Shown here: positions 12,026 to 37,889 of the stretch, piece by piece
How positions within the stretch are numbered: the stretch's first letter is position 1
Layout: each line of letters begins with the position of its first letter
NCBI GenBank assembly: GCA_044350895.1
Contig: JBILGT010000003.1
Location: 10,671 to 74,670, forward strand
From: Limisphaerales bacterium
Lineage (GTDB): Bacteria > Patescibacteriota > Microgenomatia > UBA1400 > PJMF01
Length of the DNA: 64,000 bases
Direction of reading: 5' to 3'
Made by a program: the position numbers and the translations under genes
Notes under the pieces: generated by a model
Database searches by the model: none
What the model was told of the DNA's origin: nothing
The model's input: the letters and a program-made list of their open reading frames with translations, nothing else

Positions 12026-12495
12026 CCACAGTAGTAACTGAAAAAACACTAGCTCAGATTACTCATGCTCTGCACACGCAAGAGCAGCTTACTGAAGTTA
12101 TAGCGCAGATTGAGACCTGTCAGAGCATGCTTTTTTCTACAAAGAAAGCTGCCCAAAAAACTCTAGAAAGTTTACCAAACCTTATTCACTCACTCGTTCC
12201 AGATGCAATTCAAGCCGATGAAAAAAGTTTGGATGGATGGTTGTCAGAACTCAGTGATCAGCTTCGAAAAATTCCGGTTGCTACAGTGACTGTTGCGTAT
12301 CTTCCTACTGCAGCACAAGCTGAAGAGTTGCGTTCACTCGTTGAAACTGGTTTTGGAAGACACGTCATTATTGCGCTGCAAACAGATCCAAAGTTACTAG
12401 CTGGAGTGCGGATTGAATTTGCCAACACCCGGACACAATATTCGCTGAGCCAAGATATGGAAGAGATACTTAAGGAAGCACATGTCCAATCATAG
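12022..12495 (+). CDS. atpH: F-type ATP synthase subunit delta (OSCP)
   Basis: 157 aa. The C-terminal LLAGVRIEFANTRTQYSLS is delta-like. It sits between atpF and atpA, with a 4-nt overlap onto atpF. Confidence 0.75.
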   Translation: MTTVVTEKTLAQITHALHTQEQLTEVIAQIETCQSMLFSTKKAAQKTLESLPNLIHSLVPDAIQADEKSLDGWLSELSDQLRKIPVATVTVAYLPTAAQAEELRSLVETGFGRHVIIALQTDPKLLAGVRIEFANTRTQYSLSQDMEEILKEAHVQS

Positions 12496-14790: not shown

Positions 14791-14808
14791 CGAAGCAGTA
14801 AGGATAAT

Positions 14809-16224: not shown

Positions 16225-16530
16225 GGGCTTGGTGGTTTTTACACCAAGATACACTTCAACTCGATATTGAAAACAGTGCAGTACACCACCATCAACCGCA
16301 AACTCTTTTTTTTCGCCACTTGCTAGATGTAGTATGATTTTTTCCTTGATAAGTGTTATGAAGTTGGTGTGTTCTGCCAAAATATCAAAAGGACCCTGAT
16401 CATTTACTGAGGAAAGTGATGCTGCAACATCATTAAAAATGATACCTTTTTCATCATGTATTAAAACATCAAATGAGGTTTGATCGGGTGTTATGTTTTT
16501 TATTGGCACGATGAAATTTGTATTTGGCAA
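16219..16530 (-). CDS. atpC: F-type ATP synthase subunit epsilon (N-terminal beta-sandwich domain only), encoded inverted relative to atpD
   Basis: 103 aa. It matches the epsilon pattern ..IVPIKNITPD..F..GPFDILAEHTNFITLIKEKIILHL..KEFAVDGGVLHCF.., and the C-terminal helical hairpin is absent. The start codon is TTG at 16530 or GTG at 16509. Its TAG stop (top 16219-16221, read as CTA) is the last sense codon of atpD. Confidence 0.65.
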   Translation of the reverse strand: MPNTNFIVPIKNITPDQTSFDVLIHDEKGIIFNDVAASLSSVNDQGPFDILAEHTNFITLIKEKIILHLASGEKKEFAVDGGVLHCFQYRVEVYLGVKTTKPS

Positions 16531-16628
16531 GTATCCCTTGGTGACATGTAGTTGATGCTTACTTACATAAGTATTACAGCTTGTTAGTCACAATTTGACA
16601 AGATAGTATAGAATATAGATATAGTATT

Positions 16629-16907
16629 ATGGCAAAAAAACAACCAGAAGAAGCAGAAATAAAAATAGTGCCTTTTAGACAAAATGGTTTAAATAGGGTC
16701 TATTCTAATCACGTAGAAATAAATGTCTCTGAGATAGATCTAAACATAAAGTTTTGTGATGTTAGACCGCCAGAGAATGCTGAAAATATGGAAATGACAA
16801 TATCAAAAGGAACATTTGGAGTTCCTATTGTTGCAGAAGTAGTAATTCCATTAGTAGTAGCAAAAGCACTTAAACGTATATTAAATGAAAGAATAAAGGA
16901 GGATTAA
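16629..16907 (+). CDS. DUF3467-like small protein
   Basis: 92 aa with VYSNHVEINVSEIDLNIKFCDV...VAEVVIPLVVAKALKRILNERIKE, which resembles the DUF3467 pattern (YaN..v..s..ef.ldF ... a.vv.Rv.msp..AK.L...L). The region is AT-rich, and a TTGACA-17-GATATA promoter-like element lies at 16595-16623. Confidence 0.5.
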   Translation: MAKKQPEEAEIKIVPFRQNGLNRVYSNHVEINVSEIDLNIKFCDVRPPENAENMEMTISKGTFGVPIVAEVVIPLVVAKALKRILNERIKED

Positions 16908-17183
16908 ATGTCAACTCAATTTATGCCTCTAGATCAAATTTTAGACACTAATTCTGTATCAACTAATAATTTACCTATTGTTAAGAAATTTAGTGATTTT
17001 TTTACTACAGCTTTTCCTTTTTCAAGTTATATTGAGCCACAAGATGAAATAGCCAGTATCAAGAAGTTTGCATTTCCTCCTCTTGATGAACTGAGAGCTT
17101 CATTAGTTGAAGCTGGTTATTCCAAGGAAGAAATTGATGTCGAAATCAAAGCCTTCGCCAATATGCCAGAATATAGAGGTTGA
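16908..17183 (+). CDS. Hypothetical small protein; candidate antitoxin partner of the downstream RelE/ParE-like toxin
   Basis: 91 aa with an acidic C-terminus. It sits immediately upstream of the toxin-like ORF and overlaps it. No recognisable RHH/Phd/ParD motif. Confidence 0.35.
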   Translation: MSTQFMPLDQILDTNSVSTNNLPIVKKFSDFFTTAFPFSSYIEPQDEIASIKKFAFPPLDELRASLVEAGYSKEEIDVEIKAFANMPEYRG

Positions 17184-17439
17184 AGTAACTCAAGAAGCAG
17201 AAGAACAAGCTAAAAATCAAAACCTTACTAAAAAACTTGAAAAAGCTATCAGGTTATATAAGGCCAATCCGTGGCACCCATCTTTGCATAATGAATTATT
17301 GAAACCAGAAAGTATGGGTCGTCACTCCATAATGTTAAACGACCAATACCGTGCTAAATACATCAAAATTGACGCTAATAAGATTAGAATATACTATGTA
17401 GGTGACTACCATGGAAAAAAACACAAAAAATCCAAGTAA
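17137..17439 (+). CDS. RelE/ParE-superfamily (YoeB/Txe-like) type II toxin
   Basis: LTKKLEKAIRLYKANPWHPSLHNELLKPESMGRHSIMLNDQYRAKYIKIDANKIRIYYVGDYHG fits the ParE_toxin / RelE pattern (L.k.l.k.i..l..nP..p.L....Lkg.l.g.ys.ri...yRivY.id.....i.il.ighH). The ATG start is at 17137; an alternative TTG start is at 17107. Confidence 0.55.
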   Translation: MSKSKPSPICQNIEVEVTQEAEEQAKNQNLTKKLEKAIRLYKANPWHPSLHNELLKPESMGRHSIMLNDQYRAKYIKIDANKIRIYYVGDYHGKKHKKSK

Positions 17440-18420
17440 GAATGATTTTTTAAATCTTCTAAAAAAAGCTGTTATGCCCGTGATAGTAAAACCTGAAACA
17501 TCGGCAACTCCGAGTTCCGATAATTATAACGGAAAACAAATTCGTTCAAGTAAAACTGCAAATACTTCTTTGAAACAGCGTGGTGAGTCCCAGAAATAGA
17601 ACGCTTAACCTGACTCCAAAATCCCTCAATTGTGTTTGTGTGTACATTTCCACGCACGTATTCTTTGATTCCATGCTGGATAACTTCATGTAAGTAACCG
17701 TCTTTTTCTACACGGTTATAGACTGGAAATTCATCTGTCATAACTGCACTACCTAAAGTAACATTCTCTCTCAAAATTGGAATAACAGTGGCAGACTTAA
17801 CATTGTCTACATGTTTAGCACGAACACTGCCACCACGTTGTACTACTCCAACTACTGCTGCTTTATCAGTACCACGACCTCTTTTACCGCCTCTACGTGA
17901 GCCGCCTATATATGTTTCGTCTGCCTCAACAGTACCACTTAAAGGATCTTTACCTTGTGTCATTAAACTTCTGATCTGATGTGTCATACGCCATGCACAT
18001 TTATAAGTAACACCTAATTGGCGTTGCACTTCTTTAGCACTTACACCATTACGAGCAGATGCAAATAAAAACAGTGCATGAAACCATAGAGTGAGTGGTG
18101 TACTACTCTTATGAAAGATCGTTCCTGCTGTAGGGTGTAATTGAAAACCACAATGTGAACAGGAATAACACTTACGTGTACTTACTCTGTAAAAACTATT
18201 CTCAGCCTTACATTCTGGACAAATAGGATCAGGAAAACGCATAGCAAAGATATACGCAATACACGCATCATCGTTAGGAAAATCTTTGAGTAAATCAGCT
18301 ATGGTATACTTAGCTTGCTTGGCTTTCATGACCATTATTATAGCATTTATTTACATGTTGTAAAGGGATACTTGCCTTGTATTTTTACTAGTACTACTAT
18401 ACCTGAGATACAACATGCTC
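17440..18420. mobile_element. IS1595-family insertion sequence (boundaries approximate; terminal inverted repeats not resolved by eye)
   Basis: A transposase gene flanked by short non-coding stretches. It lies within or adjacent to an AT-rich island (16531-18520). I could not confidently identify the IRs or target-site duplication. Confidence 0.4.
17472..18335 (-). CDS. IS1595-family (ISXO2-like) transposase with N-terminal zinc-ribbon
   Basis: 287 aa. Cys cluster CPECKAENSFYRV...CYSCSHCGFQ, then an ISXO2-like DDE region ..VEADETYIGG.. and ..HTNTIEGFWSQVKRSISGTHHAVSKKYLQFYLNEFVFRYNYR. Confidence 0.85.
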   Translation of the reverse strand: MVMKAKQAKYTIADLLKDFPNDDACIAYIFAMRFPDPICPECKAENSFYRVSTRKCYSCSHCGFQLHPTAGTIFHKSSTPLTLWFHALFLFASARNGVSAKEVQRQLGVTYKCAWRMTHQIRSLMTQGKDPLSGTVEADETYIGGSRRGGKRGRGTDKAAVVGVVQRGGSVRAKHVDNVKSATVIPILRENVTLGSAVMTDEFPVYNRVEKDGYLHEVIQHGIKEYVRGNVHTNTIEGFWSQVKRSISGTHHAVSKKYLQFYLNEFVFRYNYRNSELPMFQVLLSRA

Positions 18421-18461
18421 CACAATGCAAACGCATGAATATTTGTTGTGTCTTTGTGCCT

Positions 18462-18490
18462 TTGCACTCCTGAGAGAGTATGCATATAAT
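18462..18490 (+). promoter_or_regulatory. Sigma70-like promoter TTGCAC-17-TATAAT upstream of the P-loop kinase gene
   Basis: -35 at 18462-18467, 17-nt spacer, -10 TATAAT at 18485-18490; the ATG is at 18520. Confidence 0.4.
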
Positions 18491-18519
18491 ACCTATTTAT
18501 AACTTCAAAGGTTTTTCGT

Positions 18520-19173
18520 ATGTCACAAACAACTGATGGTCACTTTGTGTATAAGAATATTACTGTTTCTGGTTTGCCTGGATCAGGATCAACAACGTTG
18601 TTAAATAAATTACGTGACCATTCTGAATTGAAGTTTCATGGTTGGACTGGATTTAGTGGTGGTGAGTTCATGCGCTCCTATGCAGCTGAGAAAGGTTTGC
18701 TTGATCAGAACGGCAAATTGCATCATACAGCTGAGGCATATGGGGAAGACTTTGATCGTGAAGTTGATTATGGAATGAGAACTCGACTTTCCCAAGAGAA
18801 GCACTGGATTCTTGAATCATGGCTCTCAGGATTTATGGCACAAGGTGTGCCAGGTACATTTAAGATTTTAATGATTTGTAGCAATATGGCGGTAAAGGTG
18901 GATCGTATTGTCAACCGCGATCACGTTACTCCAGATCTCGCACTTGAACATATGAATCATCGATATAAGGCGAATGTGGCGAAATGGCGTCGTATGTACA
19001 AACAAGAATGGCACGATTGGGTGGTCAAAACGGGAAAAGCGGATGAGAGTGATCCAATTGATTTTTGGCAGCCAAATTTATACGATATAGTCATAGACAC
19101 ATATTCCACCAACCAGACTGAGTCCCTGGAACAAGTATTACATGCCATCACTTCAAAAAACACAAACCAATGA
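18520..19173 (+). CDS. P-loop NTPase, nucleoside/nucleotide kinase-like (cytidylate kinase-like family)
   Basis: 217 aa. Walker A ITVSGLPGSGSTTLLNKL sits near the N-terminus. The size and layout match small nucleotide kinases. Confidence 0.55.
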   Translation: MSQTTDGHFVYKNITVSGLPGSGSTTLLNKLRDHSELKFHGWTGFSGGEFMRSYAAEKGLLDQNGKLHHTAEAYGEDFDREVDYGMRTRLSQEKHWILESWLSGFMAQGVPGTFKILMICSNMAVKVDRIVNRDHVTPDLALEHMNHRYKANVAKWRRMYKQEWHDWVVKTGKADESDPIDFWQPNLYDIVIDTYSTNQTESLEQVLHAITSKNTNQ

Positions 19174-19840
19174 TCGAGTGGTAGCCCTTGCAAAGCAGTC
19201 ACATGTTGTATTCTATCCGTTACTTTGCTTGACATTAATACTGTGGATTTTATATAGATCGTTATTTACCTTTCCCGTTTGGTTTGATGAAATTATTGGA
19301 AAAGCACTCTTCTTTGGGCTTCCGGTGTGGTTATACATCACCGTAGCTGGGTCCAAGAAAATCACTGAAACACTTTCCATGCGTAAGCTCCAACCAGGAG
19401 TTTTACTGGGTTTAGCAATGGGTGGTATCTTTGGATTCATAACTACACTGCTGGCACTCCTTGCCAAGGATTCCCAAATTGAAGCGGTGGCACTGTTTAA
19501 CTCATCACGCTTTTGGGGTGAATTTATTCTGGCACTGTTCACTGCTTTTTGGGAAACTTTGTTATTTTTTAGTTTTGCTCTGACCGTGATTCAAGAAAAA
19601 TATGAAAACTGGTCTGAAAGTTCTCAAGCACTGCTTACCGCAGGAATTTTCCTTATTTTTCACATTCCCAACATTATCATTCGATTCCATGGCTCAGTTG
19701 AGACGATGGTGTTGCAAGCACTGTTGTTATTTCTTTTTGCATTAGGTCAATCATTTGTGTTTATTGGGCGGCGAAATACATATGCCCTTATTCTTTCCCA
19801 TGCTATCTGGGGAATGGTCTTACTCGTTCATAGCTGGTAA
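19142..19840 (+). CDS. CPBP/Abi-family intramembrane protease-like protein (degenerate motifs)
   Basis: 232 aa, polytopic. FWETLLFF is EExxFRG-like with the Arg missing. IFLIFHIP matches FxxxH. HAIWG is HxxxN-like without the Asn. Confidence 0.4.
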   Translation: MPSLQKTQTNDRVVALAKQSHVVFYPLLCLTLILWILYRSLFTFPVWFDEIIGKALFFGLPVWLYITVAGSKKITETLSMRKLQPGVLLGLAMGGIFGFITTLLALLAKDSQIEAVALFNSSRFWGEFILALFTAFWETLLFFSFALTVIQEKYENWSESSQALLTAGIFLIFHIPNIIIRFHGSVETMVLQALLLFLFALGQSFVFIGRRNTYALILSHAIWGMVLLVHSW

Positions 19841-20422
19841 ATGCGTGTACAATACGGTCTTCGTGATCTATTATTTATGACAAATTTTGCGCAGAAAAGT
19901 TTATCTTTTGGACTCTTTGCCTTCGGCACATTGATCCTCGCTACCTCATTAATTGCAGCCAATAAAGCCTCAACAGGTGATACCAGTCGGTTAATGGGCC
20001 AAAAAGTCTACATGGGCAGAACCATACTGCCTGATCACTTATTGTATCCAGCTGTAATGATTGGTGATCGCATCAAGCTACAAATGGCACCTCACGAAGA
20101 GTCAATTCTTCTCCAAGTAGAATACTCAGACCGCCGCTATCGATATGCTGCTGAGTTACTGCATAAAGGACAGCCACAGTTGGCATTTACTACCCTTACA
20201 AAGTCTCAAAAGTACTTATTGATGGCAAGCAATGAAGTTTTAGTTGACCCTTCCAAAGTTGATAAAAAAACAATCATGACTGTTCGTGATGCCTTAGATC
20301 ACTCAATTTATAGACTCGAAAAATTTAAGTCAGATGAAGCCAATGCAGATGCTTCCGCGATTGATCAGCTTATTTTAGAAAGCAAAGTTTTACTCCAAAA
20401 TATTACTGCCGCACTTGAATAG
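19841..20422 (+). CDS. Hypothetical membrane-anchored protein
   Basis: 193 aa with one N-proximal TM (LSFGLFAFGTLILATSLIAA). Its start abuts the stop of the upstream gene. No recognisable domain. Confidence 0.5.
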   Translation: MRVQYGLRDLLFMTNFAQKSLSFGLFAFGTLILATSLIAANKASTGDTSRLMGQKVYMGRTILPDHLLYPAVMIGDRIKLQMAPHEESILLQVEYSDRRYRYAAELLHKGQPQLAFTTLTKSQKYLLMASNEVLVDPSKVDKKTIMTVRDALDHSIYRLEKFKSDEANADASAIDQLILESKVLLQNITAALE

Positions 20423-20493
20423 AAATGTGCTAGTTTGATTGGTTGACAGTATGCCCTCCCGCGTGAGATTCTTTATATCCTCCGTTACATAAA

Positions 20494-20541
20494 ACACAAC
20501 ATTTTGTGTCTTACACAACGGATAAGCACAATTTACTGTGG
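20494..20541 (+). promoter_or_regulatory. Two candidate NrdR boxes upstream of nrdR-RNR operon
   Basis: Box 1 is ACACAACATTTTGTGT (20494-20509), a near-perfect palindrome matching the NrdR-box consensus acaCwAtATaTwGtgt. Box 2 is the weaker GCACAATTTACTGTGG (20526-20541). Their centres are 32 bp apart, about three helical turns. Confidence 0.45.
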
Positions 20542-20555
20542 TTTAGAAAAATTCT

Positions 20556-21017
20556 ATGAAGTGTCCGTATTGCGGTAAGACTGAGACGTCTGTCGTTGAC
20601 TCACGCGAAGCCGAAGATGTCACTAGTATCCGTCGACGGCGCCACTGCACAGAATGTGGCAAACGATTTACTACGTATGAACGGGTGGAAGGCATTGACC
20701 TTAAAGTCATTAAAAAAAATGGCACTAAGGAAGCTTTTAGCCGCGAAAAACTACGCCGAGGAATTGTTAAAGCCACTTGGAAGCGCCCTGTCTCAATGAG
20801 TCTTGTTGAGGCACTACTTGATGAAGTAGAGCGCAAGTTGCGACAAAAAGAAGTTTGCGAAGTGAAGAGTTGGGAAATTGGTAACTTGGTCATTAACCGC
20901 CTTAAGCGAATTGATCCACTTTCCTATCTTTTATTTGCCAGCGTGTACCGCGATTTTGAAAGTATTGAAGACTTTGAAGTAGAAATTACACGGCTTAAAG
21001 ATCCGATAGCTGAATAG
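20556..21017 (+). CDS. nrdR: Transcriptional repressor NrdR (zinc ribbon + ATP-cone)
   Basis: MKCPYCGKTETSVVDSREAEDVTSIRRRRHCTECGKRFTTYERVE matches the canonical NrdR N-terminus. 153 aa. Confidence 0.9.
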   Translation: MKCPYCGKTETSVVDSREAEDVTSIRRRRHCTECGKRFTTYERVEGIDLKVIKKNGTKEAFSREKLRRGIVKATWKRPVSMSLVEALLDEVERKLRQKEVCEVKSWEIGNLVINRLKRIDPLSYLLFASVYRDFESIEDFEVEITRLKDPIAE

Positions 21018-23238: not shown

Positions 23239-23405
23239 TGCAACGTGTGCATGGTAGTACAATAAAAGTGAAATAATTATCTGTGATAAATGAACTTTTA
23301 TTACAGTTACAACAGTGATGAATCTGTACATCTCAGAAAGATACAGTTTATCACTGTTGTGTTTTGTATCAATTTCTTACACACTAAGTAAGGAAGCAGA
23401 AGCAT

Positions 23406-26111
23406 ATGTCAGAAACACCACAACCACAGCAAGAAGCATTACCTCAACAAGAAAGTAAGTCATTGGAAGAAGCTCGAAAACTGATGGCTCATGTTGCAAG
23501 TGAATTAAGTCAAGCCAATGCTGAAGTAGAAGCAGGAAAATTTGCAGAAGCAAAAGCTCGTTTAGAGAAAGTAGATAAACATTATACTGAAGAAGATAAA
23601 AAACTAGAGCCTGGAGTGATGGATACTCAGGAGATGAAAGCTGCCTACGACGCAAATGTTAGATTATTTAGAGCCCTAAACGGTAGAGTCAATAAAGGCT
23701 TGGCAGCAGCTACTGAACAAGCTCCACAACAACCTATAGCTAATGAAGCCCCTAGTCCAGATGCAACTATTGCCACCGAAACAGTAAACACTGACGCTCC
23801 CGCTACTGATGGCGAGGTAATTGAGGGAGTAGTAACAGGTGCAGAGCCAGCTAATTCAGTTACCACTGATCAAGTTGCTACTCAAAATGGAACGACAGGT
23901 GATAGGCCAGGAGGCTCTACATTAGACGAGATCAGAGCAGACAATGATGTGATATTCGGAGATGGAGCGGGCGATAAAATGGTCGCCGAATTGCAAGCTC
24001 AAATTAATGCGGATCAAGCCCAAGGTGATGGAGCAGCTTCACAAACTACTGAGGCCCCAGTCGCCGATGTTATTACAGAATCACCGGTAGCTGATGCGAT
24101 CCCAGCTGCACCAACAACAGATACGACACAACCTGCGGAATCAGCAACTCCTGGAGCTGTTGCTAACGCCGCTGAAGCCCCAGCCGTAAACCCAGAACGA
24201 GCAGCATTGCAAGCTCGCGTGACTGAAAGAGTCCAAGGCACTTTAAATAGAATCAACGACAGATTTAATAACTTACCAGCGGATCAACGCGCAACTTTAG
24301 AGCAAGTAATGGTAACCGACATGATGCTCCGTATGGACAGGCTTCACGCAACTGGTCGTCCTGTAACCACAGGTGACGAGCGCATGAATATCATGGCAGC
24401 AATAATGGGTACATTGCATGATAGGAACTTGATTCCTGGTCAACAGTTAAATTGGCTGGGTAACGATGCCTTTAGTAGTTTGATGGATCAGACCATGAAT
24501 GGATATTATGGTAGAAATACCTTCAATACAGGAGATGTATATACAGATGGTAGAATGCAATATAGGGGTGGACGTATGATAGAACGCGCAGGAGCACAAC
24601 ACACGCCAACAACTCAACCAACAGAATCGGCGACTCCGGCGTCGAATCAAGAACAACGGCCAGCAGGACAGGTAGTAGAACAAACAACTGCACAACCTGA
24701 ACGGAATGGTCGTATAAGAGGATTTGTTCGAGGAATTCAAGACTGGTGGGCAAGAACAGGCAATGGCGCTCCAGCAGCTGAAGTACTACCTGCAATTGCA
24801 CCTACTACAGCAAGAACAGCTGAAGCTCCCTCTGTTGCTCCAGCAGCCGCAGAAGCAGGCGCTACAACAACCCCAGCGCCTACTGAAGCCGCCACAGCTA
24901 CTGCAGCACCTGTAGCAACAGAATCAAACCCAGCTACTGATGTAGCTGAAACAAATATAGGTGAACTCACCGCAGAACAAATTGCAGAAGCCATTGCTAA
25001 AAACTCTGCAAATCGTACGGGTGAAAATGATGAACGAAAAGATGATGGAACACCACCACCTCCAGAAGCCCCAGCTCCAGCAGCAATGCTGGCTCGGTTG
25101 CATGAAGTTGAAGGTGCTATAAAAGAAATGCCAGCAGATACTATTGAAGGCATTTCTGATGAACAGCTGGAACAGCTGGCTGAAGCAGCTGACATCCTAT
25201 TTACTCTAGATCATGATGAAGCGTTTCAAGCAGATGCAACTCAAGAGAATTTTGCATTGATGGATGCAATTACTCAGTTGATTCGTCAAGCATATGAACA
25301 TCAAATGGATTATTTAGCTCAAGAACAAGATCATACATATGATCAGAGATGTGAAAGGATTGCTCTCTTAGTTGAAATGACAGCACCTGCAATGCAACCT
25401 GAATTGGCAGATAGCGGTGATGCTGATCAAATGGATAGATTCATCCAACAAATTATTAATGAAAAAATTGGTCCGCGCCCACGTGCCGCGCGGCAGAACA
25501 AAGATCGTGCAGAGTGGCGTGAAAAAGTACGGGAAGTCAGAGTACGACGACTTGATTCTCAACAAGCACAACGTGAAGGAGAATTAAAAGGAAAAACCAA
25601 AGAATATATAATTCGTAAAGCAATGGAAGCTGTTGATGCAATTGATAATGCAGCTGTAATTGTTCGCACACTCGATATCCGAACACAAAGAGTTCTTGAA
25701 AATCTTGAGGCTCGACTTGAGACGCGTCTTGATGAATTAGCCGCTAGTGGTATTGAGTTTACCAATCAGCTTGCAGGAGCAGGAGATCAGCTTACTGAAG
25801 GGCTACTCGTTCTAGGTGCAGATGTGAGCACAGTAGTAGAACAATTCATATTTGTTGATGCAGGAGAAATCTGGGACAAAAAGTGGGATCAAAGCAAGCG
25901 TTGGTTGGGAACTCCAGTACGTTTTGCAGCAGAGAAAGTTAAGGAATTCAGAGCAAACAGACGCCAAAAATTAGAAAAAGCAGAACAAAAGAAAGCTGAA
26001 AACAGAGCTGTAGCACGATCTAATTACCAGACTATAAATACCGAACGCCGCCGCAGAGCTGAAACACCAGGAGCAGTAAGAACACAATTACAAAGATTGC
26101 GTGATCAATAA
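23406..26111 (+). CDS. Large low-complexity (Ala/Thr/Pro/Gln/Glu-rich) hypothetical protein
   Basis: 901 aa with no signal peptide or TM. There are extensive compositionally biased stretches and no recognisable catalytic motif. Confidence 0.6.
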   Translation: MSETPQPQQEALPQQESKSLEEARKLMAHVASELSQANAEVEAGKFAEAKARLEKVDKHYTEEDKKLEPGVMDTQEMKAAYDANVRLFRALNGRVNKGLAAATEQAPQQPIANEAPSPDATIATETVNTDAPATDGEVIEGVVTGAEPANSVTTDQVATQNGTTGDRPGGSTLDEIRADNDVIFGDGAGDKMVAELQAQINADQAQGDGAASQTTEAPVADVITESPVADAIPAAPTTDTTQPAESATPGAVANAAEAPAVNPERAALQARVTERVQGTLNRINDRFNNLPADQRATLEQVMVTDMMLRMDRLHATGRPVTTGDERMNIMAAIMGTLHDRNLIPGQQLNWLGNDAFSSLMDQTMNGYYGRNTFNTGDVYTDGRMQYRGGRMIERAGAQHTPTTQPTESATPASNQEQRPAGQVVEQTTAQPERNGRIRGFVRGIQDWWARTGNGAPAAEVLPAIAPTTARTAEAPSVAPAAAEAGATTTPAPTEAATATAAPVATESNPATDVAETNIGELTAEQIAEAIAKNSANRTGENDERKDDGTPPPPEAPAPAAMLARLHEVEGAIKEMPADTIEGISDEQLEQLAEAADILFTLDHDEAFQADATQENFALMDAITQLIRQAYEHQMDYLAQEQDHTYDQRCERIALLVEMTAPAMQPELADSGDADQMDRFIQQIINEKIGPRPRAARQNKDRAEWREKVREVRVRRLDSQQAQREGELKGKTKEYIIRKAMEAVDAIDNAAVIVRTLDIRTQRVLENLEARLETRLDELAASGIEFTNQLAGAGDQLTEGLLVLGADVSTVVEQFIFVDAGEIWDKKWDQSKRWLGTPVRFAAEKVKEFRANRRQKLEKAEQKKAENRAVARSNYQTINTERRRRAETPGAVRTQLQRLRDQ

Positions 26112-26430
26112 AGGAGTAAGTATGCCCAATAAGCAAGCGATTAAGGATCAATTCCAATCACTGAATATTATTCCTGAAGTTAAAGAACAAATTTTTAAAC
26201 GGTTAGAAATATATTCTGAGGAGCTGACAGAAGCACAGCTGGTTGATTTTGAGACATTCTTAGATGACGTTGCAGTCCGTGAAGAAAAAGTGCTGGGACT
26301 TCTTGATGATTATCTTGAAAAAGTTGAGAATATAGTAAAGGAAGATGACCTCAAAATGGAACAAACTCTTGACGCAATCAATGCCAAAGCAGAAGCTCTT
26401 AAAGCCAAAGCTCAAGCACTCGCTCAATAA
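26101..26430 (+). CDS. Small coiled-coil hypothetical protein
   Basis: 109 aa. The likely real start is MPNKQ at ~26122. It is charged and helical, and sits between two large unknown proteins. Confidence 0.45.
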   Translation: MINKGVSMPNKQAIKDQFQSLNIIPEVKEQIFKRLEIYSEELTEAQLVDFETFLDDVAVREEKVLGLLDDYLEKVENIVKEDDLKMEQTLDAINAKAEALKAKAQALAQ

Positions 26431-26491
26431 GTCACTGCAAAAAACAGGATATCAGTTCCAGCCAGTTTATCTGTATACTGATATGTAGTGT

Positions 26492-29400
26492 ATGGCAAAA
26501 CCAGAAACTCCAGTAACTCAAGAATCACAAAATTTACCTACTATTGATCAATCAGTAAAAACTTTGTTGGATCAAAACGTAGCTGCCAGTAGAGAATATA
26601 AGCGATCTCAAGGTAAAGAAATCTCTACTGAAGCACTAGCCCGCACACGCGCGGCAGTCAATATTTTATTGATTGAAGCAGCTGAAACTTTTGGGGAAGT
26701 ACCACCTGAACAACAACAGCAGATTATAAAAAATATCTTTGATACCGTCATACTGCATTTTAGAACCAGAACTCCTGTCCACTTTGAGTTGGAAGCAAAT
26801 GAGTCTAACTGGCAACAGATGCAGCAAGCAACTGTAGATGTGATAAATGGTTGGCTGCAAAACTTTGTAGATAACGTATCCCAACTCCAGGGCATGGATA
26901 AACAGTTAATTCTCACATACCTCAACTCTGCAAGCGCAGTCTTTCGGGTAAATCTCGCAGAACTCCTCAGACTTGGAAATAGACTGCAGCTTGAGGGCGG
27001 TGCAGCTGCTCAACCACTTCGCGAAGAAGAGCAGGCCGAGCAAATGCAACCAGTACCCTTTGTTGAAACTGAAAAAAACCAAGAAATACAGAGAGTGAAA
27101 ATCGAAGATTCACATCCTTTTTATAAAGGTGGCGTTCTTTGGCTCAGTATTAATAATTTGCACTATGTGCCATATGCTGATTTTATTGCAGCTCTCACCA
27201 ATGCCTCAGCTGCTCAAACTAACATGCCAACGCTGTGGGTCGAGTTACCTGATACAGTGCCGCAGGCAGCCAAATGTGCCTTTGGCGTAGATGAAGATCT
27301 TTTTTTGGAACTGATGATGATTTCGTATGCTGACGAAGTAAAATCGATTACTGAAGCGAACGAGACAACTGTCATAATCAATGGCAAGAAAGTGCAGTGG
27401 GATGCTGTAATTTCTGGGATTGGCTCAGCAGATTTGGATGAAGATCTCGTTAAATTAAGCATCCCCATTGATGAACCAGGCAACAAAAATTACCTCATCG
27501 TTCGTCTGACTCCGCAAACAATGCGTCAGTTACTGTTATTACGAAACAAAACACTGCCAACAGGCTGGGGATCCTCAACTGAACCAAGAACTTATACTCT
27601 ACCAACTACAGTTGGAACACCTGGAGTCCCGAATCTAGATGCTTTTGCACCCCTTCCTCAAGTAAATGAACAAACTCCACCTCCAGCGCCAGTTAGGCCT
27701 GAGCCTGCCACACAGCCAGTTCGTCCCGTCGCAGCTCCAGCACAACCTGCCCGAGTAGCACCAACGCCTGCTACTCCAGCACCTACCAAAGTTGATGGTG
27801 CCAAATCGCCTGCAACACCTGTTCCAAATCGAGCAGAACCTGCCCGACCTGCTGCAGTTACTCAAAATATAAAAACTGAAGTAGTTCAACCCGTAGTACA
27901 AACACAAGAACCAAGACAAACTGCTGAAAGAACACAGCAAGAACAATTACCAGTAACTAAAATAGAATTTTTACCTGATGGTAAAACGGTTCGATTAAAC
28001 GATGATCCTAGCCAAACTTTTGGTATTAATTATTTGAATCAAAGAACTAATGTCCGTGAATTATTCGATCAACAGGTTCTAACGGTACCCGTTGAGAAAC
28101 GTGGACAACAAGGTGCTATATTCTTATTGGTCGTTACTTATCCTGTGTGGCGTGAGTTTAAAGACGAAGTGCGAAGAAGAGCAACAGAAAGTGGTGCTCA
28201 AAGTAAAGAAAAACAACAAGTTCCAATAATAAATATTCCCCGAATCGAAATACCATGGAGTAAAAATGCAAAACAAATTGCTCTTTTTACAGAACAAAAT
28301 AATCCTCTTCCGTTTTCAACTGAGGCTTTAATTGGGTGTGTGTTTACTCCAGACGCTTCTGATCCAAACCAAGGATTTGTTGAACTTATACCAAATGCAA
28401 TTAACAACTTCCCACAACATGAACGACTCAGAATAGTGCGTAGTGAGTGGGAAAGAATTGATGCAATCATTCCTCAACCATTAATTGTTGAGGAAAAACA
28501 AGTGCGTATGGATGACACCTATGTGACACTTAATGCTATTCGTTTTAGAAGAATTCGTCTGACGGAAGCCGAACGTGATCCATTGGTGAGAAATAGAATA
28601 GAAATAACTGTTCGTTCAGATCAAAACCCTAAGCCATTTAGAATTGAAATATCGCAACGTACTTGGATGAAAATCGTAGAGCCATTTATGACTCCAACGG
28701 ATACTGCAAAAACTCAAGAAGCTCCACCAATAATTAATCGAATTGGTGCTCATGAATTTATCGGAAGGCGTCCGTACATGGAGGATAGAACTCTTGTTGA
28801 GTCTGATGTTTTAAATAATGGGGATGTATTGGTGGGAGTGTTTGATGGTCATGGAGGAAGCAAAGTAGCTGAAATAGCTCAACGGCAATTTGCTTCTGAA
28901 ATGAAGAAAATTTCCGCAACAAACCCAAAGAATATACAAGAACTATTGCGACTTTCATTCTTAGAAGTTAACAAAATAATTGCTCAAGATAAAAAACTCA
29001 ATAATACAGGTGCTACAGCGGCAGTATTGTATAGAACTAATGGTACGCTCTATAGCGCAAACTTAGGAGACTCACGTACTGTTATGGATGGTGGTAACAA
29101 TATGGCTATAAGAATCTCAAAAGATCATAAAGCCGATGATCCTGCAGAAATTGCACGTATCGAAGCAGCAGGTGGATTTGTTGAGCTAGCTATCCCAGGA
29201 GCAGATGTAGCCAGAGTAATGGGCAGTTTAGCTATTGCAAGAGCGTTAGGAGATCTAGCATTTGGTAAGTTCATTAGTGCAGAAGCATATGTTGCTGCAG
29301 TAAAACTGGAAACAAAAAATTCGGTTGCAGTTACTGCCTGTGATGGTATATGGGATGTGATTACTGATGATGAGGCTATTGCAACAATTACTGATTTGAA

Positions 29401-29506
29401 GAGAAAGGGTAAATCTGAAAAGGAAGCAGCTCAAAAATTAGTACAAATGGCATATGATCGTGGAAGTGGTGACAATCTTACGGCTGTTGTTGTTTATCTG
29501 AATTAA
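26492..29506 (+). CDS. Large multidomain protein with C-terminal PP2C-family (PPM) Ser/Thr phosphatase domain
   Basis: 1004 aa. The C-terminal ~260 aa carry PP2C motifs: RPYMEDR, VFDGHGGSKVA, TGATAAV, LGDSRTV, ARALGD, GSGDNLTAVVV. The N-terminal ~740 aa are unrecognised and include a Pro-rich linker. Confidence 0.8.
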   Translation: MAKPETPVTQESQNLPTIDQSVKTLLDQNVAASREYKRSQGKEISTEALARTRAAVNILLIEAAETFGEVPPEQQQQIIKNIFDTVILHFRTRTPVHFELEANESNWQQMQQATVDVINGWLQNFVDNVSQLQGMDKQLILTYLNSASAVFRVNLAELLRLGNRLQLEGGAAAQPLREEEQAEQMQPVPFVETEKNQEIQRVKIEDSHPFYKGGVLWLSINNLHYVPYADFIAALTNASAAQTNMPTLWVELPDTVPQAAKCAFGVDEDLFLELMMISYADEVKSITEANETTVIINGKKVQWDAVISGIGSADLDEDLVKLSIPIDEPGNKNYLIVRLTPQTMRQLLLLRNKTLPTGWGSSTEPRTYTLPTTVGTPGVPNLDAFAPLPQVNEQTPPPAPVRPEPATQPVRPVAAPAQPARVAPTPATPAPTKVDGAKSPATPVPNRAEPARPAAVTQNIKTEVVQPVVQTQEPRQTAERTQQEQLPVTKIEFLPDGKTVRLNDDPSQTFGINYLNQRTNVRELFDQQVLTVPVEKRGQQGAIFLLVVTYPVWREFKDEVRRRATESGAQSKEKQQVPIINIPRIEIPWSKNAKQIALFTEQNNPLPFSTEALIGCVFTPDASDPNQGFVELIPNAINNFPQHERLRIVRSEWERIDAIIPQPLIVEEKQVRMDDTYVTLNAIRFRRIRLTEAERDPLVRNRIEITVRSDQNPKPFRIEISQRTWMKIVEPFMTPTDTAKTQEAPPIINRIGAHEFIGRRPYMEDRTLVESDVLNNGDVLVGVFDGHGGSKVAEIAQRQFASEMKKISATNPKNIQELLRLSFLEVNKIIAQDKKLNNTGATAAVLYRTNGTLYSANLGDSRTVMDGGNNMAIRISKDHKADDPAEIARIEAAGGFVELAIPGADVARVMGSLAIARALGDLAFGKFISAEAYVAAVKLETKNSVAVTACDGIWDVITDDEAIATITDLKRKGKSEKEAAQKLVQMAYDRGSGDNLTAVVVYLN

Positions 29507-29508
29507 GA

Positions 29509-30576
29509 TTAAAGTCTCAATCTTGGCACTCGCTCAATTTTTTCAATCTCTGTACCAGTTATTCCAGTTTTAAACCCCGCCACAACCCCAATCATTGCTG
29601 CATTATCTGCACAGAGTTTTTTTGTATATGGGACACGAAGTCGGAGCGTTGGTTGTTTCTGAGTCTTTGCGATATTTTTAAGTGTTTCGCGTATCATTCG
29701 CCGTAACTCTTTATTGGCTGCGACTCCACCGCCAAGCCATACCTCTTTCACATCATGTTTTTCTAAAACTTTGTTCAATTTATAGCAAATATGTTTAAAT
29801 ACCCCTTGTTGAGCGCTGGCACACAAATCAAAGATTTGGGTTTTGGTGAGTGTATTTTCTGCTTGCAGTTTTTCGACTAAGTTTCGGGCGAATGTTTTCA
29901 TTCCTGAAAAACTGATGTCAAAAGTTTTGACAGTTGTAAGAGGCAGTGGAAATGGAAATGCCTCTTTGTTTCCGAGTTTTGCAAATTCTTCGATGATGGG
30001 CCCGGCTGGGTAACCGAGGTTCAGCATTCTGCCAATTTTATCCAGACACTCACCAGCTGCATCATCCAAGGTGGCACCCAGGATTTGATACTCTCCAATC
30101 GCTGTGACGAGGACAAACTCTGTATGTCCACCAGAAACAATGATCGAAAGAACTGGAAGTTTTTGTTCTTTGTTTTTTGATGCCGAATCATTTTTTACGG
30201 CAGGATGTGCTAACACAGAAAGTACATGACCTTCAATATGATTGACTGGGATAAGTGGTTTGTTGAGTTCTGTTGCAAGCTCTTTGGCAGCAGTAATGCC
30301 TACTTCAAGTGCCGGTGCGAGTCCGGGTCCGACAGTTACAGCTACGGCATCCAGTTGCGTTCTGGAGATTCGAGCGCGCTTGAGTGCAACTGCAATTGTA
30401 GGTTGAATATTTTCTCGATGTGCCAATTTTGCCACCGTTGGAAATACACCACCATATGGTTTATGGAGTTCAGTTTGAGAAGCAATGACATTGGAAAGAA
30501 TTGTTGTCCCACAGGTGATTGCCACACTCGTGTCATCACAGGATGTATCAATCGCTAAAATTATTGGGGCACTCAT
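29509..30576 (-). CDS. tsaD: tRNA N6-adenosine threonylcarbamoyltransferase TsaD (Kae1/Gcp family)
   Basis: 355 aa. MSAPIILAIDTSCDDTSVAI...; metal site PLIPVNHIEGHVLS; overall TsaD colinearity. Confidence 0.9.
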   Translation of the reverse strand: MSAPIILAIDTSCDDTSVAITCGTTILSNVIASQTELHKPYGGVFPTVAKLAHRENIQPTIAVALKRARISRTQLDAVAVTVGPGLAPALEVGITAAKELATELNKPLIPVNHIEGHVLSVLAHPAVKNDSASKNKEQKLPVLSIIVSGGHTEFVLVTAIGEYQILGATLDDAAGECLDKIGRMLNLGYPAGPIIEEFAKLGNKEAFPFPLPLTTVKTFDISFSGMKTFARNLVEKLQAENTLTKTQIFDLCASAQQGVFKHICYKLNKVLEKHDVKEVWLGGGVAANKELRRMIRETLKNIAKTQKQPTLRLRVPYTKKLCADNAAMIGVVAGFKTGITGTEIEKIERVPRLRL

Positions 30577-31688
30577 ATATTTTCTTGAATTGCTAGAATT
30601 CGTGCCCGTTCGTTTTTGTCAGGGCTTACTGGTTCTTCCATAAGTGACACTGTCATACACGGAATGTGCTTTTGAGATAGAGTGGGAAGAAAATATTGTG
30701 CAACTTGACTCCACCATTCAATCACCATGATTGTATTAGGTTTGAGTAACGTTTCTAGTTCAAGACGTTCAAATACTTCTGGTGAATCTACTTTCCACAT
30801 GTCGAGGTGATAGAGCGTTCCTTCGGTACTGTGTCGTTTGAAATCATATTCTTCAATATAGGTATACGTGGGTGAAGCAATATTTTCTGTGATCTGCAAA
30901 AACTCAGCAACACCTTTTGTAAAAACAGTTTTCCCCGCACCGAGTGGTCCATCCAACCCAATCACTATCCCAGTTTTGCCAACGTCATCCCAATGCTTGA
31001 GTAGTAGTCGTCCAGCAATACTTTTGGTTTCTACTTCACTTTGGGTAGTGAGATGGTGTGTTGTTGTGGAAGCTTCAGCAATGGTTATGTCCCCAGCACG
31101 CAGCGTCACTGGAGTAGAGAGTGTCGTATCAATAACAGTGGAAGGTGGATTGGGCGGCAGTGTTCCTGCATCAAGCACCAAATCAATAAGGCTTTTTTGT
31201 TTATCTGAAATATTGTCAAAAATGTCTTGAATGGCATATGGACGTTTCTGACCCGAGCCGTTAGCAGAAGTGGCAGTAATTGGTTTGCCGTATGCACGCA
31301 GTAGCTCAAGTAATGGCTCATAGGCAGGGATGCGTACACCTACAGTCCCGAATTCTGAAGCAACTCCCGGAGCAACAGTATCTTTGCTTTTGGAAACGAC
31401 AGTTACAGGGCCAGGCAGAAATTGTTTATACAACGTCCGGGCTTGTTCATTGAGTTCTACATACTTTTCTGCCATTTCTTCAGAAGTGACAGCAATAGAA
31501 AGTGGTTTACCTTCACGTCGCGATTTGTACGCAAGAAGTTTTTCAACTGCAGCAGGATTGGTAGCATCAACACCAGCCCCATAGGTTGTCTCAGTAGGAA
31601 AAATTACTAAACCACCTTTTTCAAGAACAGAAATGGTAGCAACAATCAATTTTTGTATTGGTGTATCGGATAGTCGTAGAATTTCCAT
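30573..31688 (-). CDS. Fusion protein: threonylcarbamoyl-AMP synthase (TsaC/YrdC domain) + TsaE (P-loop, YjeE family)
   Basis: N-terminal half has the YrdC signature LVIFPTETTYGAGVDATNPAAVEKLLAYKSRREGKPLSI. C-terminal half has TsaE motifs GLDGPLGAGKTVFTKG, IASPTYTYIEEYDF, LYHLDMWKV and IMVIEWW. Confidence 0.8.
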   Translation of the reverse strand: MEILRLSDTPIQKLIVATISVLEKGGLVIFPTETTYGAGVDATNPAAVEKLLAYKSRREGKPLSIAVTSEEMAEKYVELNEQARTLYKQFLPGPVTVVSKSKDTVAPGVASEFGTVGVRIPAYEPLLELLRAYGKPITATSANGSGQKRPYAIQDIFDNISDKQKSLIDLVLDAGTLPPNPPSTVIDTTLSTPVTLRAGDITIAEASTTTHHLTTQSEVETKSIAGRLLLKHWDDVGKTGIVIGLDGPLGAGKTVFTKGVAEFLQITENIASPTYTYIEEYDFKRHSTEGTLYHLDMWKVDSPEVFERLELETLLKPNTIMVIEWWSQVAQYFLPTLSQKHIPCMTVSLMEEPVSPDKNERARILAIQENI

Positions 31689-35789: not shown

Positions 35790-37211
35790 ATGAATGAAAC
35801 CATCGGTCTTTCAGAAAAAGATTTAGGACAAACAGCAGCAGCTGCCACTGAATCAGTGGCTCCACAGCGATCGCTTATTGATATTCCATTCGGTTCACAA
35901 CCTACTCCAGCACCATCAGGGGAGCGAGCCACAGGCGGTGAATTCGTGATGCCTCAAGGTGTCGTAACTGAAATGGAACAGTACGATATTGAGACAACTG
36001 GGAGTTTGCAGAATAAACTTTGGACAGCAAAGATTAGGTTGGGTTCAGCAGCCACTCCAGAAGCAAGAACTATAGAAGCTACCAGAATTAAAGCACTTGA
36101 AGCCGTTCTGAAAGTTCGTAATCAAGAAGTAGCAGTGGAACGACGACAGCGCAGAACAAAATTGTTGGTGAATGTTAGGGATTTCTTCAGAGCCAATCCC
36201 GCAAATTTCCAATATCCACTCTGGTCTGGTCCTGAAAAACGAGCCCAGATGGATGCATTAAAAGCTGATCTCGCGGCAGCTACAGACTGGATGGGAAACG
36301 CACGCAATCCACGCCACACTGAGGGTGAACAAACCGCTGCTGACCAAACTGTTTCAGATACCGAATCACCACAAGGATTTGTTGGAGAAGTAACAGAGGA
36401 GACGAATAGTGAACCAGCTGAATTAACTTCGCATGAAAGAATGAGACAGCAGAAAGCAAGTGCTGAAGCCAGATTGGCTGCTACAGCAGCAGAGTCTGCA
36501 GAAGCCCAAGAACGGGCAGCAGAGGCTCGGCAACAAGCAGCTCTAGCAGAACAACAGCGTGGTGAAGCAATCAGGGACATGAGAATTGCTGATCATACCG
36601 CAGAGATTACCGCACAACTGGTTGCAGATCATCCTGATTCGCTGACTGGTTCAAATGCTAAATTGGTCTATGAAACAGTAGCATCTGACCCGGGTACAGC
36701 TCACCTTGAAATGGGTATGCGCCTGCGAATTGTTGAAGGTGTACTAAATAACTTAGCCGATCGACGCGCTGAACGTCGTGCTGCTCCTCCACGAGCACAA
36801 GTTTTAGCGACAATTGAACGTGCGGTTGAGCGAGTTATACAGAACTATCAGGGTGATCAGAACGCACTGCCTCAATTGGTTGATGAACAGGTCGAGCGTG
36901 CGACAGCATTTATGAGTGAAGACGTACGAATAGAAGATTCGCAATATGAGCAAAAACTTGCTGCATACAATGCGCAAGATACTCAAAATCGTGGTGAAGC
37001 TCCAGAGAAGTACATGACGATACCTGGATATAACTTTACTCAAGATGAAGTGGCTGCTGTTCACGTAAAGGTAACTGAGCAGATTGCCAAGAGACAGCTT
37101 CCCACTGCACCAGAAACTGCATCTGCACCAGCGGAAGTTGTGGCAACTGCTACTCCAGCTGAAGCTCCACAAAAAAAACGGAGCCTCTGGAATCGTTTAA
37201 CAGGCAGATAA
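35790..37211 (+). CDS. Hypothetical protein (Ala/Glu/Gln-rich, predicted cytoplasmic)
   Basis: 473 aa with no TM or signal peptide and no recognised motif. Confidence 0.6.
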   Translation: MNETIGLSEKDLGQTAAAATESVAPQRSLIDIPFGSQPTPAPSGERATGGEFVMPQGVVTEMEQYDIETTGSLQNKLWTAKIRLGSAATPEARTIEATRIKALEAVLKVRNQEVAVERRQRRTKLLVNVRDFFRANPANFQYPLWSGPEKRAQMDALKADLAAATDWMGNARNPRHTEGEQTAADQTVSDTESPQGFVGEVTEETNSEPAELTSHERMRQQKASAEARLAATAAESAEAQERAAEARQQAALAEQQRGEAIRDMRIADHTAEITAQLVADHPDSLTGSNAKLVYETVASDPGTAHLEMGMRLRIVEGVLNNLADRRAERRAAPPRAQVLATIERAVERVIQNYQGDQNALPQLVDEQVERATAFMSEDVRIEDSQYEQKLAAYNAQDTQNRGEAPEKYMTIPGYNFTQDEVAAVHVKVTEQIAKRQLPTAPETASAPAEVVATATPAEAPQKKRSLWNRLTGR

Positions 37212-37274
37212 ACTTCATACTTTTTCATCAACACCATCTTGTTTTTTTTATAAAAAATTTCATACTGCTGATAT

Positions 37275-37889
37275 ATGGTGATATCCAAAGAGCCAATGTA
37301 CGGTCGTAGACACTATGCAAATTCAGCGCCTGCCACGTCTGAGGTAAACTTAGCGACGGAAGAGTATCCGTTTGAATTGAATCAAGAACAAGTGACTGAA
37401 TTAGTAGATGATGTGATTCGAGCAGTTACAGCCAAAATACACAACACAGTTGACGGGAGTCTCCCACCACAGCTAAATTTTGTGTGTGGTCCAGACATTA
37501 AAATTACCTATCAACGAGATAAAACTATGCCTGGTGCTGTGGCATACACAATATACGAGTCAAATCTCAATCAAGTTGGGGAAGCTCCTGAAGCACTCGT
37601 TGTCATTACAAACCATAATGATAAAAGCAACGCACACTTCCAAGTTGAGTCTAGTTCAGGAACATATTACGTCCACTTTTGGACAACTGATACCAAACAA
37701 CTGCAAAAGATAAGTAATGCTGTACAAGCATTTATGTTTGATTCTGTCTCAGGATTGCGTGAAACGCTACAAGGTTTTGGAACAGTAAGCCAGAATACTC
37801 AGGAACTGAGAGAAGAGGAAACGGGAATTCGCGTTTTTGCACAGAATATCTTGAAAAAACTATCGAGTGTATTTAGAGGGAAAAAATAG
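37275..37889 (+). CDS. Hypothetical protein
   Basis: 204 aa, no recognised motif. Confidence 0.5.
   Translation: MVISKEPMYGRRHYANSAPATSEVNLATEEYPFELNQEQVTELVDDVIRAVTAKIHNTVDGSLPPQLNFVCGPDIKITYQRDKTMPGAVAYTIYESNLNQVGEAPEALVVITNHNDKSNAHFQVESSSGTYYVHFWTTDTKQLQKISNAVQAFMFDSVSGLRETLQGFGTVSQNTQELREEETGIRVFAQNILKKLSSVFRGKK

Follow-up and report, generated by a model that had tools for sequence, protein, structure and literature searches.

An orphan three-gene block with a predicted eukaryote-like PP2C domain in a hypervariable chromosomal slot of a Microgenomates-type bacterium

The A-B-C block and its setting

We analyzed a 64-kb stretch of bacterial DNA (contig JBILGT010000003.1; referred to here as the window) that carries a block of three genes, termed A, B, and C, situated between nrdR-nrdJ and tsaD. 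The last of these encodes a protein that ends in a predicted PP2C phosphatase domain, and the block as a whole is found in only a handful of relatives. The window is a housekeeping portion of a chromosome with a G+C content of ~42%. Its ribonucleotide reductase (RNR) groups with a protein from ‘Candidatus Woesebacteria’; on the strength of the RNR relatives and of the 80 nearest RNR loci among GTDB species representatives, the source organism is a Microgenomates-type bacterium of the candidate phyla radiation (CPR, or Patescibacteria). Proteins identical to A, B, and C have been deposited in a Joint Genome Institute (JGI) metagenome contig (sample 3300059473) and in an NCBI assembly.

All three open reading frames (ORFs) lie on the forward strand, as an initial annotation made from the sequence had stated: gene A at 23406–26111 (901 amino acids, aa), gene B at 26101–26430 if its ORF is delimited mechanically from a GTG codon (109 aa), and gene C at 26492–29506 (1004 aa). 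That annotation described the junctions as overlapping or short; their shortness was borne out, but the overlap was not. The start of gene B is most likely the ATG at 26122 (26122–26430, 102 aa), judging from an AAGGAG sequence 6 nt upstream of it and from the public gene call, which likewise gives 102 aa. With this start, A and B do not overlap, and the gaps are 10 nt (A–B) and 61 nt (B–C). The block is free of tandem DNA repeats according to Tandem Repeats Finder, and promoter and terminator scans gave uninformative results, at or under shuffle expectation.

The same gene order with the same flanks was found in L001 (European Nucleotide Archive, 1.37-Mb contig) and its duplicate L003, in L004, in L002 (an identical strain), and, partially, in L086. 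A further locus, L005 (GCA_018000505.1), holds a contig-truncated orthologue of C adjoining tsaD. In four independent loci, the junctions measure 10–14 nt (A–B) and 48–73 nt (B–C), and the order is always A-B-C. The joint occurrence of the genes, which the initial annotation had proposed as a check, therefore holds in every relative possessing them. Only 2 nt separate the stop of C (+) from that of the convergent tsaD (−) (29504–29511), and the corresponding distance is 3 nt in L001, L004, and L086 and 33 nt in L005. Such proximity leaves no room for a terminator, so that transcription of either gene would enter the other in the antisense direction.

The PP2C domain of protein C

The carboxy-terminal domain of C (aa 746–1004; 28727–29506, +) belongs to the PPM/PP2C family. 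Residues 751–995 match PF00481 with E = 3.4e-50 and 171.5 bits (cut-off 20.3), covering profile positions 3–254 of 255. The characteristic motifs (RRPYMEDR, FDGHGG, GDSR, CDGIWD, and GSGDN) are invariant in four orthologues, and so the complete catalytic domain claimed in the initial annotation is indeed present. At the level of single residues, R760, E764, D765, D785, G786, D860, D951, D955, D994, and N995 are invariant in the 4 orthologues, which are ~41% identical overall. The residues that we take to be the PPM1A equivalents (R33, E37, D38, D60, G61, D146, D239, D243, and D282), metal and phosphate ligands included, are all present and invariant. The active site is thus intact in sequence, and C is predicted to be a metal-dependent Ser/Thr phosphatase.

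Which kind of PP2C is it? All 51 of the 51 PDB sequence matches are eukaryotic PPMs (plant ABI1/HAB1, PPM1K, PPM1A); none is bacterial. Its best database relatives, 36–40% identical, are oomycete, plant, and fungal PP2Cs along with short unnamed metagenome proteins; among the best matches, one lies in a giant-virus-like contig, and another in a bacterial contig that also encodes tandem PP2Cs and a leucine-rich repeat (LRR) protein. These matches place the domain in a eukaryote-like subtype by sequence. The likeness to human PPM1A and PPM1K and to plant ABI1/HAB1 extends to the catalytic domain and its ligands; C differs in being only 30–40% identical, in its 745-aa orphan amino terminus, in its CPR host, and in lacking the eukaryotic regulatory partners.

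Bacterial PP2C systems offer a poorer fit. The Stp1 equivalog model NF033484 scored 60.5 bits against a cut-off of 230, with a partial match (aa 762–879); in the Pfam scan, PP2C_2 reached 17 bits, under its cut-off, and SpoIIE (PF07228) was not matched. C shares with Stp1/PstP/PrpC and with RsbU/RsbP/SpoIIE the superfamily, presumably the metal-dependent chemistry, and the lack of a signal peptide, those enzymes being cytoplasmic. Yet there are no kinase, transmembrane anchor, STAS, or anti-sigma genes beside it, and none of the Stp1, PP2C_2, and SpoIIE models is matched at its cut-off. It also matches none of the bacterial PP2C structures at E values up to 0.01, whereas a PP2C protein from the equivalent position in locus L026 does. 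Neither a Hanks kinase nor an FHA domain turned up in the window or in 85 related loci when these were searched, with limited sensitivity, by phmmer (using PknB, GarA, and a kinase domain) and by a motif regular expression; the Pfam-scanned ORFs of the window likewise include no kinase, STAS, or anti-sigma partner. The initial annotation’s view that no such partner accompanies C, and that its architecture corresponds to no described PP2C system such as RsbU, SpoIIE, or Stp1, is therefore upheld.

One distant protein deserves mention. P0002, a 1637-aa protein from Margulisiibacteriota, is one of 2 non-self matches to full-length C in a limited word-index search (31% identity, in the PP2C region alone); it combines an orphan amino terminus, a PP2C domain, low-complexity linkers, and a carboxy-terminal protein kinase domain.

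The amino-terminal region of protein C

Upstream of the catalytic domain, C comprises a head (aa 1–366; 26492–27589), a linker (aa ~367–492; 27590–27967), and three small beta-rich domains, D2 (aa 493–582), D3 (aa 583–664), and D4 (aa 665–745), at 27968–28726. Residues 1–745 gave no match in Pfam, NCBIfam, PADLOC, or the PDB sequences, and the sole PHROGs match of C lies in the PP2C domain. These results agree with the initial annotation, which had recognized no domains in this region apart from a Pro-rich linker (here delimited to aa 373–492).

The head consists of a helical part (~aa 15–170) and an alpha/beta part (~aa 195–365) and ends in YLIVRLTPQTMRQLLLL. It is common to L001, L004, and a 461-aa ORF of L086 (40% identity over aa 15–364, E = 7e-71); hidden Markov models (HMMs) of its sub-blocks match only these three loci, except that the helical-region HMM additionally matches L088. 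A motif at the end of the helical region, L159-x-L-G-x3-Q-L-x2-G170 (26966–27001), is invariant in 4 of 4 head sequences. The linker, rich in Pro, Ala, and Thr, is disordered as judged from its composition and from its low predicted local distance difference test (pLDDT) scores (21–29); its length and sequence differ among orthologues, and the ratio of nonsynonymous to synonymous substitution rates (dN/dS) is ~0.7 in the L001/L004 pair.

D2–D4 are kept in the window, L001, L004, and L005 (54–36% identity), and D3–D4, immediately before the catalytic domain, is the best-conserved amino-terminal part of the protein. An AlphaFold2 model of aa 1–750 (pLDDT 41) was usable solely at aa 580–733, and most of the head had a pLDDT below 50. 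Modeling of aa 575–745 fared better (pLDDT 80, predicted template modeling score 0.66), and it predicts two domains, each a beta-sandwich with a C-terminal helix. Foldseek searches of PDB and BFVD with this D3–D4 model returned no significant match; tandem PH domains ranked first (E ≥ 0.02, TM ~0.25). The arrangement recalls PHLPP (PH, LRR, and PP2C domains), in that beta-sandwich domains with a C-terminal helix, for which PH-like folds top the Foldseek ranking, directly precede a PP2C domain. But C has no LRRs and no sequence relationship to PHLPP, and the Foldseek result is not significant (best E = 0.02); the resemblance would be a convergent architecture at most. We also considered and rejected the notion that the amino terminus is a repeat protein: only D3 and D4 are weakly alike (hhalign probability 46%).

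Proteins A and B

Protein A is acidic (pI 4.7) and mostly of low complexity, rich in Ala, Glu, Thr, Pro, and Gln. Conserved islands occur at aa 1–100, ~265–400, and ~548–901, the last of which ends in RRRRAETPG.VR..LQ.LRD. There is no family or PDB match (Pfam, NCBIfam, PADLOC, PHROGs, PDB sequences). Orthologues occur in L001/L003 and L004 (42% identity) and in L086, where a partial copy aligns at the carboxy terminus (29%). Across aa 501–800 (numbering of the L001 orthologue), dN/dS is 0.05–0.07, and in the linkers it is 0.5–1. The homology searches that the initial annotation had recommended for this protein and for the amino terminus of C thus find both to be true orphans. No known sensor family was recognized in that terminus and the genes are kept together in relatives; on neither count, then, is the annotation’s proposal of a candidate novel module contradicted.

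Protein B is small, acidic (pI 4.4), and the most conserved of the three, having just 3 relatives in 5.8e9 proteins (57–66% identity) and no PDB match. Residues 33–75 align with DUF5663 (PF18908) at E = 5e-4 and 21.0 bits, under the gathering cut-off of 23.7; the weak match recurs in 3 of 6 B-family members. DUF5663 is a family of small proteins without an assigned function, so membership, for which the resemblance is weak and below the cut-off, would explain nothing.

Distribution, selection, and divergence

The block is exceedingly rare. An initial word-index search with full-length C gave only 3 matches, as low-complexity words crowded the candidates, and it was redone by sub-regions. Exhaustive HMMER searching of 1.84 billion representative proteins with aa 1–745 of C yielded 3 relatives (P0028, P0029, and the fragment P0030). 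Contig collections were examined with pattern scans, which require exact pattern matches. Within that limit, the D3–D4 alignment found nothing in genome contigs, the C-head and B alignments found nothing in metagenome or viral contigs, and the divergent tail of the L086 protein (described below) found nothing in viral contigs. Subject to the same limit, these empty scans argue against a phage origin.

Are A, B, and C genes at all? Between L001 and L004, dN/dS is 0.24 for A, 0.05 for B, and 0.18 for C, compared to 0.01–0.09 for the flanking genes. Most folded segments have values of 0.05–0.10, and the low-complexity linkers approach 1; a window at aa 605–704 of C, in which dS is low, has a dN/dS of 0.78. 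The ORF lengths (837–1004 aa) are kept in at least 4 lineages. With dN/dS below 0.25 in all three, they are real genes, not chance ORFs.

These genes evolve far faster than their surroundings. Compared with L001, the flanks of the window are 70–95% identical, and A, B, and C are 42%, 62%, and 42% identical, respectively. L086 is, by its flanks, the genome closest to the window: they are 81–93% identical (TsaD 83%, YidC 91%), vs. 29% for the carboxy terminus of A, 57% for B, and 40% for the C head.

Base composition also sets parts of the block apart. The G+C content at third codon positions (GC3) is genome-typical in the C head (0.350), but it falls to 0.14 in the C linker, 0.22 in the C tail, and 0.248 in gene A, all under the values of all 24 other genes measured (0.27–0.43).

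A hypervariable slot between nrdJ and tsaD

An AT-rich spacer of 167 bp (23239–23405) separates nrdJ from gene A and forms the upstream edge of a variable slot. We collected 80 GTDB species-representative loci by means of the conserved RNR and compared their slot contents. In 80 of 80, there is no detectable relative of A, B, the C amino terminus, or the C PP2C domain. In L006, L009, L017, and L031, the slot is nearly closed, with 7–156 bp between nrdJ (+) and tsaD (−) (e.g., L006:10977–11133). Other slots hold unrelated ORFans of 250–1450 aa, among them those of L042 (1288 + 106 aa; 12236–16432), L085 (903 + 93 aa; 12854–15861), and L020 (914 + 101 aa; 12239–20561), the coordinates being those between the RNR match and tsaD, and also those of L015, L024, L029, and others. 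None of these ORFans has a Pfam match or profile similarity to A or B. Pairs of a large and a ~100-aa protein recur in the slot (L085, L020, L042); homology of these pairs with A and B was rejected (hhalign probability <1%). From these comparisons, the nrdJ-tsaD junction is a hypervariable, high-turnover chromosomal slot across related CPR genomes.

The presence of the block does not track relatedness. TsaD of the carrier L005 is 61% identical to that of the window, and those of the non-carriers L006 and L042 are 66% and 62% identical. With a carrier more distant than non-carriers, the block must have either undergone repeated loss or replacement or passed from one lineage to another.

In several lineages, the slot contains PP2C proteins of another kind: a 600-aa protein in L033 (12188–13990, +; PP2C_2 at 1.6e-12), a 789-aa PstP/PppA-like protein in L026 (12229–14598, −; 7e-17, L026/L022), and weak matches in L025 (4764–5960, +) and L012 (12274–13899, +). 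They are of the bacterial PP2C_2/PstP-like subtype, and their amino termini are unrelated to that of C. The D0–D4 and H block HMMs of C match none of these proteins, and phmmer likewise links none of them to the PP2C of C. PP2C has either resided in the slot since an ancestral stage or been recruited to it repeatedly. The L026 protein may contain an FHA-like segment.

A different tail in the closest genome

In L086 (1108–4160), the C head, including a near-identical YLIVRLTPQTMRQLLLLRNKTL stretch, and a Pro-rich linker are followed by a 570-aa tail that has no similarity to D2–D4 or to PP2C and belongs to no known family (Pfam, PDB, PADLOC, PHROGs). Since A, B, and the head recur at this locus but the tail is unrelated, the sequences indicate that the head and tail of C are separable and that A, B, and the head stay together. 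The pattern of a constant amino terminus and a variable carboxy terminus, which is used to recognize polymorphic toxins, is thus seen between the window and L086 (heads 40% identical over 350 aa), with a change of reading frame at the L086 junction. A suspected resemblance of the L086 tail to HopA1 or lyase-type effectors was unsupported by Pfam, PDB, PADLOC, PHROGs, and a plasmid tblastn search. A C-head fragment (P0030) occurs in the 1-kb contig L088 (3–982), separated by 53 nt from an IS256-like transposase ORF upstream of it.

A foreign origin of the tail of C is possible, given the low GC3 values in gene A and in the linker and tail of C, the eukaryote-like PP2C subtype, the relatives in giant-virus-like and LRR-bearing contigs, and the head fragment beside an IS256-like transposase in L088. 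The sequence data are compatible with horizontal acquisition of the PP2C domain, though they do not prove it.

Interpretation

Taken together, the data lead us to a tentative proposal, the one that we slightly favor: A-B-C may be an accessory module with an exchangeable payload that serves fast-changing dealings with other cells. The three genes would constitute a lineage-restricted accessory operon, lodged between nrdJ and tsaD in a narrow CPR clade of the Microgenomates type. C would combine a conserved head (aa 15–365), a disordered Pro-rich tether, and an exchangeable tail, which in the window is made up of D2–D4 and then a eukaryote-type PP2C predicted to be catalytically competent. The head, the small protein B, and the scaffold-like protein A could form a constant docking part, or “address”, and the tail would be the payload, with D2–D4 positioning or gating the phosphatase on a phospho-Ser/Thr substrate. 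The role of such a module might lie less in core housekeeping signaling than in interaction with a host, a competitor, or a phage.

A bolder version of this proposal can be formulated, in which A-B-C is the first polymorphic effector system in CPR bacteria: the head and its two partners would load exchangeable enzymatic tails for delivery into a host or rival cell along some as yet unrecognized route, and the nrdJ-tsaD slot would be a site of cassette exchange. We consider this version unlikely. The nearest analogy is to the LXG toxins of the type VIIb secretion system (T7SSb) and their Lap factors (PMC10801868, PMC9600955), which have a constant, mostly helical amino terminus, a variable enzymatic carboxy terminus, and a ~100-aa acidic protein encoded directly upstream, the position of B in the block; it is an analogy only. 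As in C vs. the third gene of L086, LXG tails are exchanged between close relatives. In contrast to that system, C has no LXG, WXG100, or other trafficking domain by Pfam, the window has no EssC-type or other secretion ATPase, and the block has no downstream immunity gene. With respect to Rhs, CDI (contact-dependent inhibition), and LXG polymorphic toxins generally, aa 1–745 of C lack any trafficking or pre-toxin domain in Pfam, NCBIfam, and PADLOC. PP2C is not a typical toxin, and a T7SS is not known from CPR bacteria. Our literature searches found nothing relevant on PP2C or effectors in CPR.

Several observations weigh against the accessory-module proposal itself. Kyte-Doolittle analysis revealed no conserved transmembrane-like or signal-peptide hydrophobic stretch in A, B, or C, in keeping with the initial annotation’s statement that no transmembrane segment is present, and no trafficking domain was recognized. 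The scanned window ORFs include no pilus or secretion machinery, and no type IV secretion system (T4SS) or pilus genes adjoin the block. Hence, the association with secretion that the initial annotation had suggested looking for was not found, and its “effector” label lacks support. No immunity-like gene follows C, because the convergent tsaD abuts it; the same is true in L001, L004, and L086. A physical interaction among A, B, and the head is suggested by synteny alone. The evidence from L086 is itself ambiguous: its head and tail ORFs are in different frames with a 46-nt overlap, the change falling at an A4T5 run (GAAAATTTTTGG), and the copy may be frameshifted, a pseudogene, or two separate genes. 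Part of the divergence of the block is due to its disordered linkers, where dN/dS approaches 1, and positive selection was not indicated by any test. Finally, bacterial PP2Cs are mostly cytoplasmic regulators, and a resident signaling phosphatase could be ancestral in the slot, because other lineages carry bacterial-type PP2Cs there.

This last point leads to a rival that we regard as nearly as likely as the accessory module. C could be an ordinary cytoplasmic PP2C of the eSTP type that opposes Ser/Thr kinases encoded elsewhere, with its amino terminus sensing or localizing and with A and B as mere lineage-specific structural neighbors. The lack of export signals in C, the purifying selection on its folded parts, and the purely housekeeping flanks are all consistent with such a role, and the slot PP2Cs of L033, L026, and L025/L012 suggest an ancestral resident PP2C near tsaD. 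However, the PP2C of C is of a different subtype from these slot neighbors, with no phmmer match to them and with eukaryotic structures only among its PDB matches. Moreover, the closest relative, L086, retains A, B, and the head but loses the PP2C domain; C is missing from most close relatives; and no kinase or FHA partner lies within the 64 kb. An anti-phage or conflict defense island, with the PP2C as effector or regulator, might also be invoked to account for a hypervariable slot filled with unrelated large ORFans by lineage, a swappable tail, and atypical GC3. We judge it improbable: none of the proteins, the L086 tail included, is matched by a PADLOC model; the domains usual in defense (NTPase, nuclease, TIR, Sir2, and others) are absent; and no integrase flanks the slot, the sole integrase-family gene of the window lying ~17 kb off and looking XerC/D-like. 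The notion that the ORFs are decaying or spurious and have no function draws on their large low-complexity fractions, the absence of homologues beyond a tiny clade, and the seemingly frame-shifted L086 copy. The evidence of selection and conservation effectively rules it out: the dN/dS values (0.05–0.24, and 0.05–0.10 in most folded segments), the catalytic residues invariant across ~40%-identical orthologues, and the ORF lengths maintained in at least four lineages.

CPR genomes commonly encode large orphan proteins and new PP2C fusions. What had not been described before is a PP2C built into such a modular protein and encoded alongside two dedicated orphan partners in a CPR genomic hot spot. 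The prevailing view is that CPR bacteria live in attachment to other cells, and the proteins that they use on their partners are almost unknown. Under the accessory-module proposal, the locus is a concrete, testable candidate for such dealings: it is rare and fast-evolving, its tail is swappable, and it encodes a predicted phosphatase that can be assayed. If C is instead an internal regulator, the finding is a new amino-terminal architecture for a bacterial PP2C. The nrdJ-tsaD slot, whose contents differ between near-identical backbones, should lend itself to studies of how genes turn over in streamlined genomes.

Other features of the window and related loci

Profile scans of the window ORFs identified genes for ATP synthase, penicillin-binding proteins (PBPs), an SPFH/Band 7 protein, and a class I W/Y-type tRNA synthetase (PF00579), together with nrdR, the class II RNR gene nrdJ, tsaD, a sua5-tsaE fusion, yidC, groES/EL, ftsH, hrcA-grpE-dnaK, and a recD-like gene. 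The Sua5/YrdC-TsaE fusion (371 aa; 30573–31688, −) adjoins tsaD and is kept in L001, L004, L005, and L086. Immediately downstream of groEL, at 35790–39443, three successive ORFs (473 aa, +; 204 aa, +; 517 aa, −) without Pfam or NCBIfam matches form another orphan cluster.

The sole surface-type gene in the window lies 12 kb from the block (4250–11413, −). Its 2387-aa product, probably a giant protein of the surface or of fimbriae, has six stretches that match the NCBIfam TafC fimbrial model (2.9e-61, under the equivalog cut-off). An IS1595-family transposase gene (17472–18335, −), also present in the identical strain L002, is located 5 kb upstream of the block; in its place, upstream of a syntenic run of kinase-like, CAAX, DUF5667, and nrdR genes, L001 and L004 have two PBP genes and a GH18 gene.

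Two observations concern the comparison loci. Many GTDB species-representative records with a typical CPR locus are titled ‘uncultured Pseudomonadales’, ‘Vitreimonas sp.’, ‘Methylococcaceae’, or ‘TM6’ (L008, L010, L013, L042, L077, and others); the contigs behind these titles are probably mislabeled or mis-binned. In L050 (10001–13072) and L085 (9722–12805), the RNR match spans ~3.1 kb rather than 2.2 kb, which suggests that nrdJ carries an insertion in these genomes, possibly an intein.

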